Source: a virus (taxonomy: Duplodnaviria; Caudoviricetes). Taken from it: a DNA stretch of 25,706 nucleotides. The DNA is taken from positions 1 to 25,706 of IMG/VR virus record IMGVR_UViG_3300020045_003397. One strand, 5' to 3'. A program made the position numbers and the translations under genes. The notes below the pieces were generated by a model. That model saw only the letters and a program-made list of their open reading frames with translations. It was not told the origin of the DNA and did no database searches. Numbering within the stretch: position 1 is the first letter of the stretch; each line of letters starts with the position of its first letter. Of this stretch, positions 14,411-25,673 are shown one piece after another.

Positions 14411-14905
14411 ATGGAATGTAAATGCGGATACACAACAGAAAATAAAAAATCTTTTTCTAATCATATTAGATACGGATGTAAGTCTAAAGAGATATTATAC
14501 TTTTGTTTGCAATGTGGAGAAAAATTACCTATTAATATAAAGCCTAAAGATGGTAGGAAATTTTGTAATCACAGTTGTTACGCTATGTGGAGGGGTAATA
14601 ATTTAAAAGGCAAATACGCTCCTAATTACATAAATGGTAAATGCAATGAAAATTTATTGTTTAGAGCCTCATATGAATATAAGTATTGGAGGTTGTCTGT
14701 TTTTAAAAGAGATAATTTTACATGCGTTTTATGTGGGGACAATTCAGGAGGTAATCTTCAGGCGCATCACATAAAGGATTTTGCATTATTCCCAGAATTA
14801 AGATTAGACATAAATAACGGACAAACACTTTGTAAAAAATGTCATAAAAAAACAGAAAATCATGGATTTAAAAAATCAAACACAAAAAAGAGAAATAAAG
14901 TTTAG
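14411..14905 (+). CDS. HNH endonuclease with N-terminal Zn-binding motifs
   Basis: RDNFTCVLCG...AHHIK...NGQTLCKKCH. Flanked by 14-bp direct repeats. Confidence 0.9.
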   Translation: MECKCGYTTENKKSFSNHIRYGCKSKEILYFCLQCGEKLPINIKPKDGRKFCNHSCYAMWRGNNLKGKYAPNYINGKCNENLLFRASYEYKYWRLSVFKRDNFTCVLCGDNSGGNLQAHHIKDFALFPELRLDINNGQTLCKKCHKKTENHGFKKSNTKKRNKV

Positions 14906-15287
14906 AGGTTTACTTACACATAGTAAACTTACTGTGATTGGGAACCTAATTATTAGTAAAAACGGTAAACCATATATAATTCCTGCTGAAGTTTTTGAGC
15001 CAGATGGACACCATTTAATAATTGATTCAGATAATCCATTTTGGGTAGAACCTGAAACAATCTGCCAATTCACCGGATTATTAGACAAATCAGGGCTTGA
15101 AATTTATGAGGGTGATATAATTGACCACTATGCGCTACATGGATATGTTGTTTATGAAAACGGTATGTTTTCAATAAGCAGCAATGCAAACACACAATTC
15201 TGTAATTGCAAACAGCCTTTAGCATATCACGATGTTAGCGAAATGGAAGTTATCGGAAACATTCACCAAAACCCATCAATGTTATGA
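14862..15287 (+). CDS. YopX-family protein
   Basis: REIKFRG...PETICQFTGLLDKSGLEIYEGDII...EVIGNIHQNP. Confidence 0.88.
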   Translation: MDLKNQTQKREIKFRGLLTHSKLTVIGNLIISKNGKPYIIPAEVFEPDGHHLIIDSDNPFWVEPETICQFTGLLDKSGLEIYEGDIIDHYALHGYVVYENGMFSISSNANTQFCNCKQPLAYHDVSEMEVIGNIHQNPSML

Positions 15288-15550: not shown

Positions 15551-15647
15551 TGAAAGGCCGCATCACACGCCGTGCATTTGGCGGCTTGTAACTAACGTTT
15601 GAAGGCTATGATTAGTTAACATTTTACCTCAAAAAACTCAAAATACA

Positions 15648-15860
15648 ATGTTAGAAATACCTTTTAATTGGGACTGTGAAAAAATTAGTTGGGTAAGGGG
15701 AAGAATTGCAAGCAGAATGATATGTGAGAACGCTAAATCTATTGAAGATTCTGAAATATAAAGAACGCTTATTGGCACTTGCTTGCCTACCAGGCTAATT
15801 GAAATTGCAAAAGAATGGAAAAGAGAAAATTATAATCAAATGCTAAAGGAAATAATATGA
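15648..15860 (+). pseudogene. 70-codon ORF interrupted by one in-frame TAA (15759-15761)
   Basis: The frame resumes after the TAA and ends at a TGA overlapping the next ATG. Confidence 0.5.
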
Positions 15861-16090
15861 AATACGGAATATTAAAAATAGGCGATGTTGTAAAATATAC
15901 TTCAGAGGCTAAACAAAGAATGCCGACAATCACAGATGATAAAGAATATACGGTTACAAATATTGACTGTGATGATTCACATGCTGACGGCATAAAAGAG
16001 GATGGTGACGAATGGTACGGAGCAGATATTTATTGGCTAAATAGAATTAGGAAAGGTAGTACGGCTGCTCACAAAACTAAAAAATGTTAA
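15857..16090 (+). CDS. Hypothetical SH3-like protein (unit 1 cargo)
   Basis: LKIGDVVKY...KEYTVTNID. The stop codon lies inside the right repeat arm. Confidence 0.65.
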   Translation: MKYGILKIGDVVKYTSEAKQRMPTITDDKEYTVTNIDCDDSHADGIKEDGDEWYGADIYWLNRIRKGSTAAHKTKKC

Positions 16091-16204
16091 TTAATTATAG
16101 CCTTTGTTAGCAATCAGTTGGCTATATTCTTGTCAGATACGATGCGAAGTTCGAGGATTGTAACTGCTGTTTTAAAAGACTTCGTAACAGCCAATTGTTG
16201 CTAA

Positions 16205-16817
16205 CGAATATAGCTAAATGCAGTGCTACCCTATGTTAAATTGAAAACGAAAAGTAATAGTTTAATATTTTTAACACGTACAACATGAAAAACGAACTTG
16301 AAAATTTAAAAGCAAGCATTCATATTATTATTGATTTTTTCGATAAAAGCAAACCGAGAAGTATTGAAAAAATGCACGAAATGATTGATGAAAAAATTGA
16401 TTCTTTCGTAAATGAGAAATTATTATCAATCATGTGGAATAAGTATTCAGAAACAAAACCAACAGAATCGGGTAGATATTTAGTTGTACATTATGGTAAA
16501 GTATGTACTGCCACATGGAATGAAGAATATAAGGCGTGGGATGTCAAATGGATTGAAGATGAAGATGGTGATATGATAGATATTGTTTATAATGAATCAA
16601 ATGTAACATACTGGTGTAAACTACCAGATAAACCAATTTGATCGCCTTGCAAATAAGGTGAACAAAGTATAAATGCTCGTTAACAAAAAATATTAAACTA
16701 TGGAATGTATGTTGCTAATTTTCATTGAGGTTGTGAACAGCGCATTGCATTTAGCTGATGTTATGCGCAGTTGTTTTATTAATCTTTCTTGGCTGCTAAT
16801 TTCACAATGGCGCATAA
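16205..16817. repeat. Cassette unit 2 (613 bp)
   Basis: Stem B 16212-16226/16742-16756. Inner perfect 16-bp IR 16257-16272/16686-16701. 59-bp stem A 16760-16818. Confidence 0.8.
16285..16641 (+). CDS. DUF551-like phage protein (unit 2 cargo)
   Basis: WNKYSETKP...GRYLV...VTYWCKLPDKP pattern. Confidence 0.7.
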   Translation: MKNELENLKASIHIIIDFFDKSKPRSIEKMHEMIDEKIDSFVNEKLLSIMWNKYSETKPTESGRYLVVHYGKVCTATWNEEYKAWDVKWIEDEDGDMIDIVYNESNVTYWCKLPDKPI

Positions 16818-17420
16818 CGGATACGCACATGCACAGGGCTACACATATTGAAATTGAAAAACAAAGTAAACAATAAATTAATTTTTTAACACGTCTTACC
16901 ATGAACAGAGAAATTAAATTCAGAGGTGCAAGAGTAGCAAATAATCAAATGATTTATGGCTATTTTGTAGTAGCTCCAAATGGAGAGCATCGCATTTATA
17001 TGCAGCCGTTCCCCGAAGCAACAAATAATACTTATTATAGCGTATGGAATAATTCTGTTAGTCAGTTTACAGGGCAACAAGATTGTAACGATAAAGATAT
17101 TTATGAGGGTGATATTATAAAAACCGGAACAGATAAAGTGATGTGTGTAAGATGGAGCCAAAAACATGCATCATTTGTGATTGATCGTGAAGGCTGGGCT
17201 TTTCTGCATTATTTTGGAGAAGCGTTTGATGGCAAAGATTGCGAGGTAATTGGCAATAAATTCGAGAATCCGGAATTGCTCGTTAACAAAAATTAATTTA
17301 TTGTGATGATAAACGACCGCTATTTTATTGTTGCTGTGAACTATGCCTTGTGTATGTGCGGTGTTATGCGCCGTTGTTCCTTTTCTTCTTTTTGGCTGCT
17401 AACCTTACAATGGCGCATAA
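16818..17420. repeat. Cassette unit 3 (603 bp)
   Basis: Stem B 16824-16839/17345-17360. Inner perfect 17-bp IR 16870-16886/17288-17304. 59-bp stem A 17363-17421. Confidence 0.8.
16901..17296 (+). CDS. YopX-family protein (unit 3 cargo)
   Basis: MNREIKFRG...SQFTGQQDCNDKDIYEGDII...EVIGNKFENPELL. Confidence 0.88.
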   Translation: MNREIKFRGARVANNQMIYGYFVVAPNGEHRIYMQPFPEATNNTYYSVWNNSVSQFTGQQDCNDKDIYEGDIIKTGTDKVMCVRWSQKHASFVIDREGWAFLHYFGEAFDGKDCEVIGNKFENPELLVNKN

Positions 17421-17880
17421 CAGACCGGCGCTATATGAAGTTTATTCTTTTCCCTTAATCAACTCAAACATCAAAAAAAATAAAATTATGGCACTAACTA
17501 CCTACATGAATATTGGAGAATTAGAAAATTACTCCAAAATTGAAGATAAAAATTTGGATGAACTATTTCAGGAGGTAAGAGCAATATTCCCTCAATATTA
17601 TGTTCAGGAATATTTATTTACCATTTCGAGTGGTTTTTGGAAAACCGAAAAGGTGAGAAGATACACGGTTTATAATGATTTAGGTTGTGAAGCTCAAATA
17701 TTGATGTTACCAGGCCAGTATATTACCGCTTCTGGACTAATAGCATTCTTTTTAGGGCTAATAAACGGAGCAAAGAATAAAAGTATGGCTGCTCAGATCG
17801 CTCAAAAAGAATAAATTACATATAGCGCCTGTTAGTTACAGGCCGCATCACACGCCGTGCATCGGGCGGCTTGTAACTAA
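17421..17880. repeat. Cassette unit 4 (460 bp)
   Basis: Stem B 17427-17451/17805-17829. 51-bp stem A 17831-17881. Confidence 0.8.
17488..17814 (+). CDS. Hypothetical protein (unit 4 cargo, 108 aa)
   Basis: ATG 17488 follows an A-rich leader. The track's longer version runs through repeat arms. Confidence 0.7.
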   Translation: MALTTYMNIGELENYSKIEDKNLDELFQEVRAIFPQYYVQEYLFTISSGFWKTEKVRRYTVYNDLGCEAQILMLPGQYITASGLIAFFLGLINGAKNKSMAAQIAQKE

Positions 17881-18507
17881 CAGATGGCGCTATACGCAGG
17901 CCGACCCGTCAAACTATCAACTAAATCACTCAATTAACTAACCGGCTTGCGTACAGCGTTTGTTAGTTGTAGTAAAAAACCGGACATCAAAATACACGTT
18001 TTACCTAATAATTGAAAAACTATGAAAACAAGAGAAGAATTTTTATTACCAGTAATGCCAATAATATTAGAGAGCAAAATTTCGAGAAAAGAAAAAACAG
18101 ATTTACTGTTGGGTTTAATGCATGACTACGCTATTGAGTATGCAACGAAATTTGTAGAATTTCTAATTGAAAATTCAGATGTTAAAAATAAAAAAGACAA
18201 AACAGTAATCACGATTGACTTTGATAAATTAAAAGCAATTGATTTCGATAAATATATCAACAATAACGAATATCCAAAAGCGAATTTAAGAGAAACCGTA
18301 GTAATTGATCATTCCGGAGTAAATAAATTAAAGCCACAAGAGTGGACATTTACATCAGGAACCGGAGTTGTCGATAGCTACGAAACTAAATATAAAAAGT
18401 GCATTGAGGTAATTAAGAGGTTCGATCCTGGAATTATTGGCATGTACGATTTGTAGCTGGTCGCCGAACCCGCACGTTAACTCGTCCGGTTTGTTTATTA
18501 CAACTAA
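17881..18507. repeat. Cassette unit 5 (627 bp)
   Basis: Empty stem B 17886-17903/17943-17960. Stem A 17962-17985/18484-18508 encloses the cargo. Confidence 0.8.
18022..18456 (+). CDS. Hypothetical protein (unit 5 cargo)
   Basis: 144-aa ORF with an A-rich leader. Confidence 0.7.
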   Translation: MKTREEFLLPVMPIILESKISRKEKTDLLLGLMHDYAIEYATKFVEFLIENSDVKNKKDKTVITIDFDKLKAIDFDKYINNNEYPKANLRETVVIDHSGVNKLKPQEWTFTSGTGVVDSYETKYKKCIEVIKRFDPGIIGMYDL

Positions 18508-19115
18508 CGAATGGTGCTATATATCAGGCCGGCACGAATAACTAAAAGGCTTGTAAACTAATGAACTACCGGCTTGTATATAGCACGTGTTAGGCACTGT
18601 AATTAAAAAACGCTCAAAATACTAATTCTAAAAATTGATAAAATGGCATTTGAAAACGGAAACAAGGCAGACGGAAAACACTACTGGTTAACTCCTCCTG
18701 ATCTTATGAAACAACTAAATGATGAATTTAACTTTGATTTTGATCCTTGCCCTTTCCCGAAGCCTGATGATTTTGACGGCCTGAGAATGGAGTGGGGACA
18801 AAGAAACTATGTTAACCCTCCTTTTGGATCTTATACATGTACAGTTGATGGCAAAAAGAAAGGTCCAACAGCATGGGCAAGGAAATGTATTGAGGAATAC
18901 AAAAAAGGTAAATTAGTTGTACTGGTTTATCCGATTGATAAATGGGTGCTAATGTTACTTAGCGTATTAGGTGCGGAAGTAAGAAATTTAAAGGATGTAA
19001 GATGGCACTCAACCGAGGATAACGAACAAGGCCCCGGAACTGGCCGACATGTGGCAATGTTTATTTTAGATCCGCAGAATGCTCGTTGACCATGTTTTTT
19101 AATTATTGTGCCTAA
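18508..19115. repeat. Cassette unit 6 (608 bp)
   Basis: Empty stem B 18514-18532/18569-18586. Stem A 18589-18611/19094-19116 encloses the cargo. Confidence 0.8.
18643..19089 (+). CDS. Phage DNA N6-adenine methyltransferase, Dam-like (unit 6 cargo)
   Basis: WLTPPDL...FNFDFDPCP...DGL..EW...YVNPPFG motifs of the short phage Dam family. Confidence 0.85.
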   Translation: MAFENGNKADGKHYWLTPPDLMKQLNDEFNFDFDPCPFPKPDDFDGLRMEWGQRNYVNPPFGSYTCTVDGKKKGPTAWARKCIEEYKKGKLVVLVYPIDKWVLMLLSVLGAEVRNLKDVRWHSTEDNEQGPGTGRHVAMFILDPQNAR

Positions 19116-19316
19116 CAATCTGCTATACGCAACTAAACAATTACTTTAACATCAACTTGTTTACTTATAGCAACTTAGCGCAAATAATAACCACATAAAA
19201 TTAACCGAAAAGATGCCCGAAAAATAGGCGCAACATTGAGAAATCTCAATGCAAACAACAACAAATGTCATTACCCAATCAGAACCAATTACCGATAAAT
19301 AGACTAATTTAGAGCC

Positions 19317-24488: not shown

Positions 24489-24662
24489 ATGGACACAACA
24501 ACTTATAACAGGAACAAAGTAACAATGACAGACGGCAGTGTTTATAATATCGGACTTGGCATTATTACTACACGGCAAAAACACCACATAGAGAAAACAT
24601 CAATAGCTGGGTTTAAATATTATGTAAACCCATTTAATGGATTTGCATATAGGACAGTATAA
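24489..24662 (+). CDS. Small hypothetical protein (57 aa)
   Basis: ATG downstream of promoter copy 3. Confidence 0.55.
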   Translation: MDTTTYNRNKVTMTDGSVYNIGLGIITTRQKHHIEKTSIAGFKYYVNPFNGFAYRTV

Positions 24663-24983
24663 AGATACTGTTCCTGCGAAGTCAGGCGGAAGTAGGTATG
24701 CTGTTCTAATTGCATTAACCTTAATATCATGCCTCCATCCATTGTTAATTTTGCCGGATTTAATAAGCATTTCATTTTCCTGTTCCACTGTCATTGCAGA
24801 AAGTGGATAAAGGATCGGTTTAACTTCTTGTACTTTAAATTCCCACCCATTTGAACCTATTACTGGGGATTCGCTTTGGGACGATTTTGTAATCCTAGTA
24901 TTATTTCTTATTTTTTCAGAATAATCTTCGTAAAACCTGCACCCCAAATACAAGTGTGCTACATCTTTAAATTTTGTTTCCAT
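24600..24983 (-). CDS. Hypothetical phage protein whose C-terminus runs through the inverted repeat
   Basis: HLYLGC...VKPILYPLSAMTVEQ phage-type motif. LPPDFAGT is encoded by the IR. Confidence 0.65.
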   Translation of the reverse strand: METKFKDVAHLYLGCRFYEDYSEKIRNNTRITKSSQSESPVIGSNGWEFKVQEVKPILYPLSAMTVEQENEMLIKSGKINNGWRHDIKVNAIRTAYLLPPDFAGTVSLYCPICKSIKWVYIIFKPSY

Positions 24984-25673
24984 GATTTTATAATTTCGTA
25001 TTAATTAATTCATCCTTGTAACTTCTAAAATGCCGTGTCGGGTTCATCATTCCGCAGTAGTGCGATTCGAACCGCCGGTAAACAATCAACAGTGTTGAAT
25101 CCGAACCATATTTGTTTTTCATGTATTCGTCTGATTCTACATTGCGCTTTGAATTTAGCACCGTTGCATGGTCGCGGTTTGTCATTTTCCCAATGTCACC
25201 CAAAGACAACATACTATACCGGCTTAGGCACGTCTGCATGGCCTGCCTGATTCGTGTCGCGTCCTTATGTCTGCCTCGTTTACAAACGGCCTCAAACGTG
25301 GTGTTGAAATAGCTGCTTATGATTATACTGCAAGCTGTTTCTGGGGTGAGTTGGATAATGCCTGGGGCAGAGAAGGGGGTCATGTAATGGTTTAAATAAA
25401 TTTCGTATTGTTCTTCAGTTGAAATTAAACTTATTTGGTTTGGCTGTGCTATCCTCCAGTTGATAAAATTAACAACTTGATTTTTTGAATAGTCTTCCAT
25501 CAATTTAACAATTTTGTTTATTGTTGGAAATTCCGTAAAGTCTTTTAACTCTTCTTTTGCTGTTTCGTATGCTGTTTTCATACCTCCAAAATTACTAATT
25601 AATCCCTAAATTGATTCTCTTGTATCAAATAGTGTTGTACGGTTATCGCTTCCGCCTGACTTCGCAGGAACAG
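24668..25673. repeat. 1006-bp segment bounded by perfect 25-bp inverted repeats
   Basis: CTGTTCCTGCGAAGTCAGGCGGAAG at 24668-24692 and its exact reverse complement at 25649-25673. Confidence 0.9.
24988..25581 (-). CDS. Protein with a DnaA C-terminal-like HTH domain
   Basis: RIRQAMQ...SLGDIGKMTNRDHATVLNS resembles the DnaA domain IV signature (RDHTTV). Confidence 0.75.
   Translation of the reverse strand: MKTAYETAKEELKDFTEFPTINKIVKLMEDYSKNQVVNFINWRIAQPNQISLISTEEQYEIYLNHYMTPFSAPGIIQLTPETACSIIISSYFNTTFEAVCKRGRHKDATRIRQAMQTCLSRYSMLSLGDIGKMTNRDHATVLNSKRNVESDEYMKNKYGSDSTLLIVYRRFESHYCGMMNPTRHFRSYKDELINTKL

Follow-up and report, generated by a model that had tools for sequence, protein, structure and literature searches.

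Results

Twelve alternating stems in a phage record share a fixed G·T wobble

The window analysed here is the whole of IMG/VR record IMGVR_UViG_3300020045_003397, a linear Caudoviricetes sequence of 25,706 bases that is an estimated 68% complete and carries tail, exonuclease, primase-like and HNH genes. Across positions 15593-19116, seven TAAC cores alternate with six GTTA cores, and every core serves two stems, one of type B (TAAC...GTTA) and one of type A (GTTA...TAAC). Each of the 12 stems has, at a fixed position on the top strand, a G in the 5' arm opposite a T in the 3' arm, and this G·T wobble is the subject of our study.

All stems and the genes in their loops lie on the plus strand. 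The B stems are B1 (15593..16109, G15615·T16091), B2 (16202..16763, G16223·T16745), B3 (16815..17366, G16836·T17348), B4 (17418..17834, G17440·T17816), B5 (17878..17965, G17899·T17947) and B6 (18505..18592, G18527·T18574), the last two being short attC-like hairpins of 88 nt. The first-pass annotation had placed a wobble T 15 nt ahead of GTTA in all six, which is correct at every position, with G opposite in 6/6. The A stems are A1 (16106..16205, G16117·T16195, with a short loop), A2 (16760..16818, G16770·T16808), A3 (17363..17421, G17373·T17411), A4 (17831..17881, G17841·T17871), A5 (17962..18508, G17972·T18498) and A6 (18589..19116, G18599·T19106). Here the T opposite G is the 11th base counting back from the C of TAAC, again in six of six, with one 5' bulge in A1.

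The longer loops carry genes. That of the attC-like stem B1 holds a 70-codon frame (15648..15860), possibly a gene in decay, which an in-frame TAA breaks after codon 37, and an open reading frame (ORF) of 77 aa (15857..16090) without a Pfam or PHROG match. ORFs without a family match lie in the loops of B2 (118 aa, 16285-16641), B4 (108 aa, 17488-17814) and A5 (144 aa, 18022-18456), while the B3 loop encodes a YopX family protein (PF09643, 16901-17296) and the A6 loop a DNA methyltransferase-like protein (phrog_111, 18643-19089). Relatives of the methyltransferase gene were located in an array at only 1 of 80 loci, and cassette membership is therefore not a trait of this gene family.

A strand-neutral stem detector, in which G·T, T·G, A·C and C·A were weighted equally, recovered all 12 stems as a single alternating chain (15594-19114); five shuffles of the sequence gave chains of two stems at most. 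When the G·T positions were permuted within stems, a shared position arose in 0 of 200,000 trials for the B stems and 0 of 200,000 for the A stems. None of the 12 stems has a bulge in the 3' arm between -5 and -18. The earlier count of 16 G·T among 20 mismatches is less firm than given, since its figures shift with the choice of stem ends. With the spacer and ragged ends included there are 17 G·T, 4 T·G, 3 A·C, 4 C·A and 11 other mismatches, and without the spacer 14 G·T, 0 T·G, 3 A·C, 4 C·A and 7 others (binomial p = 0.19). Because 12 of these 14 G·T are the positional pairs themselves, the strand bias within the 12 stems is weak, and position and strand bias in this phage are largely one observation. 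Comparison of folding energies, which the annotation had suggested, agreed with it on the strand: the top strand was the more stable in 12/12 stems with RNA parameters and in 11/12 with DNA parameters.

The wobble is base 11 of two pseudo-symmetric half-sites

The two wobble positions reported for A and B stems coincide: each is base 11 in one of two half-sites that flank an AAC/GTT core pseudo-symmetrically. Followed outward, the R half-site has the sequence G-T-T-R-K...G11-T12, and the L half-site, whose first base stands opposite -5, is typically G-C-T-A-T-A...G11-T12. Between them lies a spacer, often partly paired, that is 4 bases long in the 3' strand and 5-8 bases long in the 5' strand. 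The interval between the half-sites is six bases on the 3' strand, as in the 11-6-11 spacing of Xer-type sites, and 1-4 bases longer on the 5' strand. The arms of A2 and A3 (16760-16818, TTATGCGC; 17363-17421, GCGCATAA) seem similar to the XerC arm of dif.

We assessed covariation by direct counting of pairs. At positions 4-9 and 12-15, pairing between A arms holds at 0.73-0.97 of sites when both arms belong to one cassette and at 0.25-0.77 when they come from different cassettes. The G·T at base 11 occurs at 0.84 within and 0.83 across cassettes and therefore survives shuffling. Hence, the arms co-vary as Watson-Crick pairs that flank an invariant base 11. The R arm is paired over about 12-15 bp. 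Overall, the stems have the basic parts of an attC site: an AAC/GTT core, R and L boxes, an imperfect hairpin and a variable terminal structure.

The wobble recurs in arrays of Bacteroidota and their phages

The first-pass annotation had made its proposal depend on positional and strand bias in a larger set of homologous stems, and both were present in every larger set that we assembled. The first viral and bacterial loci came from pattern scans that left both wobble bases unspecified, and later loci were gathered by the recombinase protein alone. One viral pattern scan gave no matches, and a scan with a 14-base pattern returned mostly chance loci (5/120 with a chain of three) and was excluded from all counts. 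The wobble is common to hundreds of sites in Bacteroidota bacteria and phages, counted as sites in related arrays rather than as independent events.

In three Bacteroidota genomes, long arrays lie directly downstream of a co-directional tyrosine recombinase gene. A chain of at least three stems was present at 28 of 67 bacterial or metagenome recombinase loci, many of the others having little downstream DNA. In this bacterial set, oriented by the recombinase gene only, G·T stands at -15 in 54 of 75 B stems (with 13 more at -16) and at base 11 in 78 of 87 A stems, and the positions beside the wobble vary freely among Watson-Crick pairs. The viral set comprises the 65 of 239 loci with an orientable array (174 were dropped for want of a chain or of a clear orientation); it has G·T at -15 in 200/238 sites and at A-stem base 11 in 243/255. 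When detection took no account of -15 or of the A arms, the pooled arrays showed G·T in 296 of 305 sites, and A-T at -15 was rare (3/305). Alignment identified 67 distinct phage recombinases; among the 71 sites that lie upstream of their genes on the gene strand, 70 had G·T, and none was found on the other strand. At these phage loci at least two sites lay upstream in 17 of the 37 with 2 kb of upstream sequence, and downstream in 0 of 62. The same site grammar also appears in assemblies outside Bacteroidota (L218, L228 and L257, including one labelled Altiarchaeales and one labelled Bacillota), where contamination is possible. Relatives of the array sites suggest that the phage studied here has a Bacteroidota host.

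Homologous arrays adjoin a compact relative of IntI

Homologous arrays adjoin an IntI-related tyrosine recombinase that lacks the IntI insertion of about 40 residues. It scores 210.5 against TIGR02249 (cut-off 265), and its best match in the PDB is VchIntIA (2a3v), with 28 residues in a stretch that spans 71 in VchIntIA. The distance from patch II to box II is 59-69 aa in the array-linked recombinases and 107 aa in 11 IntIs, with these motifs unlocated or mis-anchored in 4 of 30 family members. In a FastTree phylogeny, the array recombinases, the shorter recombinases of phages and TnpF fall together with IntI and separate from 11 Xer-type sequences (support 0.915), and we rejected membership of the Xer/dif system on this grouping. 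Internal nodes are weakly supported, and we therefore claim no order of events. Relatives of the recombinase occur in 84 of 401 sampled Bacteroidota genomes, many of them beside arrays. As a single query the bacterial recombinase retrieved no viral relatives, whereas a profile found them in 7 of 65 viral array loci (6 distinct).

Layout differs between hosts. The bacterial recombinase is co-directional with its array and has an attI-like palindrome at its 3' end, whereas the phage recombinase lies downstream of the array and the cassette genes face the opposite way from those of bacterial arrays. TnpF-like matches are common on Acinetobacter plasmids, tnpF being a short member of the array-linked family. 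On plasmid FJ012881.1 (L605, 6061-8200), tet(X3) lies directly downstream of tnpF. An attI-like palindrome and GTTA precede it, and TAAC and a truncated B-type arm come after it.

The G·T strand is sense in phages and antisense in bacteria

Relative to the cassette genes, the G·T strand is the opposite one in 27/27 bacterial loci and the coding one in 57 of 58 viral loci with a gene call, and therefore no single mRNA function fits both. In bacterial arrays the G·T strand is antisense to the recombinase gene as well. On this strand, AAC is followed by G in 229/238 viral and 152/156 bacterial sites, which is also typical of attC bottom strands (PMC2727003). The equation of the folded strand with the attC bottom strand is upheld on three counts: the antisense orientation in bacterial arrays, the G after AAC and the AA|C junction at attI-like sites. 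As to the earlier proposal that the top strand folds as single-stranded DNA or RNA, folding is supported and single-stranded DNA is favoured, while the antisense bacterial arrays speak against RNA. Rfam matches stayed below threshold in the phage record, and in two array loci no match reached the gathering score. Gene orientation is uniform within arrays, and we rejected use of the sites for inversion, as in a shufflon.

Attachment-like ends and cassette boundaries

A bacterial attI-like site consists of a short palindrome right after the recombinase gene, five bases, GTT and the first cassette; the 29 sites called from bacteria and metagenomes are those matching this rule, other hits being unmatched. 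The palindrome overlaps or closely follows the last codons of the recombinase (locus L187, 9400-9470; L375-L396), and its arms differ between loci and stay complementary. Such a palindrome might fold on its own or serve as an operator. At the phage attI-like end, 5-6 bases separate the last TAAC from TATGTA, some 55 bases ahead of the start of the recombinase; this arrangement, for which TATGTA was itself the search rule, occurs in 44 of 59 loci. From both kinds of end, the predicted crossover point on the G·T strand is AA|C. In the first cassette, base 11 is T at 29/29 bacterial and 42/44 phage sites, and in the attI-like site itself G stands at base 11 of the L half-site (L11) in 1/29 and 2/44 (3/73 together). 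Segments shared between arrays agree with this in part, with left ends mostly at AAC (23, against 2 at GTT) and right ends at either core (8 at AAC, 10 at GTT).

Cut at TAA|C, the array of the phage record would yield six plus-strand cassettes (15596-16204, 16205-16817, 16818-17420, 17421-17880, 17881-18507 and 18508-19115) with one gene-bearing loop each. At its left end lies A0 (15555..15596, plus strand), a truncated A hairpin 95% identical to A4 and without GTTA (repeat family D4). A3 is related to A2 (repeat family D1), with similarity that spans GTTA and stops at TAAC; both duplications, D1 and D4, stop at TAAC or just past it. At the right end, a site at 19113..19178 (plus strand), compared by eye, has TAAC, 5 nt and a GCTATA-type half-site with A instead of G at base 11, together with an imperfect partner arm without GTT. 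This end site is a candidate attI-like site or a decayed attC. The record has a cluster of stems of attC type, with no recombinase found, and might count as a CALIN (cluster of attC sites lacking an integron integrase) but for sites that do not qualify as attC and a sequence that is 68% complete.

Two observations concern the surroundings. The record has two YopX family genes, one inside a cassette (that of the B3 loop) and one outside (14862-15287), and its end (24600-25581) carries two minus-strand ORFs, one of which matches the C-terminal helix-turn-helix of DnaA.

Many classical attC sites have an unpaired T in the same register

As a control we applied the same analysis to 80 classical attC sites near true IntIs (77 sites in the comparison of helical index and bulges). 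These sites have a 3' bulge at -9 in 54 and a bulged T at -16 or -17 in 54; none has G·T at -15, 15 have G at base 11 of the R half-site and 10 have G·T at -16/-17. A 3' bulge is absent from 216/238 viral and 145/156 bacterial wobble sites, compared with 3/77 classical ones. Where the classical distal T is bulged, it stands at helical index 15 in 49 of 54 sites, which is the register of the wobble T.

Discussion

We think it likely that the stems are integron-like cassette recombination sites, in which the fixed G·T marks the top strand as the one that is folded as single-stranded DNA and cut at TAA|C by a compact tyrosine recombinase not found encoded in the record. The reader of the sites is likely a relative of IntI without the IntI insertion, rather than IntI itself, and the arrays would work like integrons while having neither the extrahelical bases of attC nor the domain specific to IntI. 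The enzyme would require T at base 11 of both half-sites, in keeping with G at L11 in only 3 of the 73 attI-like sites. With G opposite T, the folded G·T strand alone would present both T's, each double-stranded junction would present one, and a hairpin of the opposite strand, with A·C, none. Strand and orientation could in this way be chosen without extrahelical bases. Resolution would be by replication, as in integrons, and the array of this phage would be an orphan, served in trans or inactive.

Several points weigh against this reading. We did not find a recombinase gene in the record, which is linear and 68% complete, nor one after the end site. Four of the six B loops measure 350-480 nt, compared with 7 long loops in 238 viral sites, and such loops would hinder folding; we speculate that in these gene-bearing B stems the short A hairpin could be the folding form. 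L11 is A in 19/29 bacterial and 22/44 phage attI-like sites (41/73), and T there would be preferred, not required. By eye, phage attI-like sites have no palindrome. Right ends of shared segments lie at AAC in 8 cases and at GTT in 10, and we attribute the GTT ends to look-alike B sites. In the 12 stems the strand bias beyond the positional pairs is not significant (p = 0.19), and relatedness between arrays bears on all homologue counts. Lastly, a second recurrent mismatch, C·A at -6 beside the spacer, occurs in 61/238 viral sites (the query fixed the 5' C in part of the set) and would favour the opposite strand.

The same system might instead read the wobble geometry itself, with the T flipped from the weak G·T into a pocket as a precursor or equivalent of the classical distal extrahelical T. 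This variant, the main alternative, falls within the reading just given and takes a lesser share of its probability. The common helical register (49/54), the rarity of A-T at -15 (3/305), which would retain the T, and the G·T at -16/-17 in 10/80 classical sites speak for it; yet the wobble is present in both half-sites, whereas the classical T acts on monomers at the L box, where it prevents cleavage (PMC2727003, PMC4792948), and attI-like sites mostly have A at L11. That the sites are instead recognized as double-stranded DNA, G and T being independent contacts and the wobble a by-product, was an alternative already raised in the first-pass annotation. It drew support from the conservation of both wobble bases as sequence, even between arms of different cassettes (0.83), from the Xer-like 11-6-11 spacing of the GTTA junction and from enzymes without the IntI insertion, which is tied to hairpin recognition (PMC4792948). 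Against that, the private complementarity of the arms extends well past base 11, cassette genes are not inverted, and the fold strand is still the more stable in 289 of 372 sites when -15 is scored as A-T. Spacers after AAC also vary in length and sequence inside one array, and a reaction with two exchanges is normally intolerant of differing spacers. The balance favours folded single-stranded DNA, and double-stranded sites seem to us unlikely.

Still less probable is that the stems are RNA structures that act on a phage transcript through processing, termination or control of translation. It is true that the coding strand carries the G·T in this phage and in 57/58 viral loci, and that the top strand is the more stable one as RNA in 12/12 stems, but in bacteria the G·T strand is antisense (27/27 loci), the sites track the recombinase and attI-like ends, and there is no credible Rfam match in the phage record or the two array loci searched. 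The stems may have a secondary RNA role in phages. A mutational artefact, in which deamination on exposed single strands yields G·T, would agree with the excess of G·T over A·C at further positions (-10, -12 and -16); deamination cannot, however, yield one position in 296/305 sites with Watson-Crick neighbours, and its mirror product, T·G, is rare. We regard this explanation as very improbable.

On a bolder reading, the arrays could represent a second integron branch that is widespread among Bacteroidota and the phages of this phylum. We put forward only tentatively that in this branch a recombinase without the I2 domain picks the folded strand by paired G·T wobbles, that the distal extrahelical T of attC has its evolutionary counterpart in the wobble T, that the system is a living intermediate between Xer and classical integrons, and that it is the platform of tet(X3). 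In integrons, three unpaired features are credited with the choice of strand, and an IntI-specific domain assists in reading them; how this strand choice arose from Xer-like ancestors is described as an open question (PMC4792948). The arrays would offer a different strand cue, a fixed wobble, together with an enzyme without the IntI-only domain. For Bacteroidetes, IntegronFinder 2.0 reports almost no integrons, and a large pool of cassettes, including phage methyltransferases, may escape current tools.

Comparison with known systems

Classical integrons (IntI, attI and attC, as in VchIntIA/VCR and IntI1/attCaadA7) share with these arrays the AAC/GTT core, the AA|C crossover on the folded strand (predicted for the arrays), the G after AAC, an unpaired central spacer, a variable terminal loop, one-gene cassettes in one orientation and an attI-like site beside the recombinase. 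They differ in that attC has two or three extrahelical bases in the 3' arm of its bottom strand (G at about -9, T at about -16/-17), whereas the phage and Bacteroidota sites have no conserved ones and carry G·T at base 11 of both half-sites. Furthermore, the R arm of attC is paired over 7 bp instead of about 12-15, its spacer has 5-6 nt in each arm instead of 4 (3') and 5-8 (5'), and IntI has an additional domain, of which about 40 aa are missing from the array-linked recombinase.

The phage CALINs of Qi et al. 2023 (PMC9892861) are likewise phage-borne cassette arrays without an integrase that carry methyltransferases. Among them, Polaribacter phage P12002L has sites of the wobble family, with G·T at -15 and at base 11 on the coding strand. 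That study reports two P12002L sites and treats them as ordinary attC, and in the text available it says nothing of the wobble, of long R arms or of any cognate recombinase; P12002L attC1 is the only one of its six sites without shown integration by IntI1. By hand alignment attC1 fits the wobble family, with G·T at -16 and one 3' bulge, and attC2 is not a B stem by our detector and sits at array ends. We also observed that P12002L, a cultured phage (L740, minus strand, about 29200-40600), has several arrays, with some genes in B loops and no annotated recombinase, and that two of its array ends carry one common attI-like sequence.

Our literature search, whose coverage excluded most subscription papers, found no description of the wobble site grammar. 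The 'integron-like' subgroup of tyrosine recombinases defined by Smyshlyaev et al. 2021 (PMC8138268) includes 144 proteins from Flavobacteriia, 71 from Bacteroidia and 49 from Cytophagia. The IntI insertion is described as not fully conserved in it, and it includes TnpF, which joins the array-recombinase clade in our tree; the accessible text describes no sites or arrays for these members. XerCD/dif has the 11-6-11 half-site spacing in common with the arrays. The attP of CTXphi recombines as a folded single strand, with neither an I2 domain nor extrahelical bases involved (PMC4792948). Both differ from the arrays, which combine one dedicated recombinase with many divergent sites, an asymmetric spacer and a fixed wobble.

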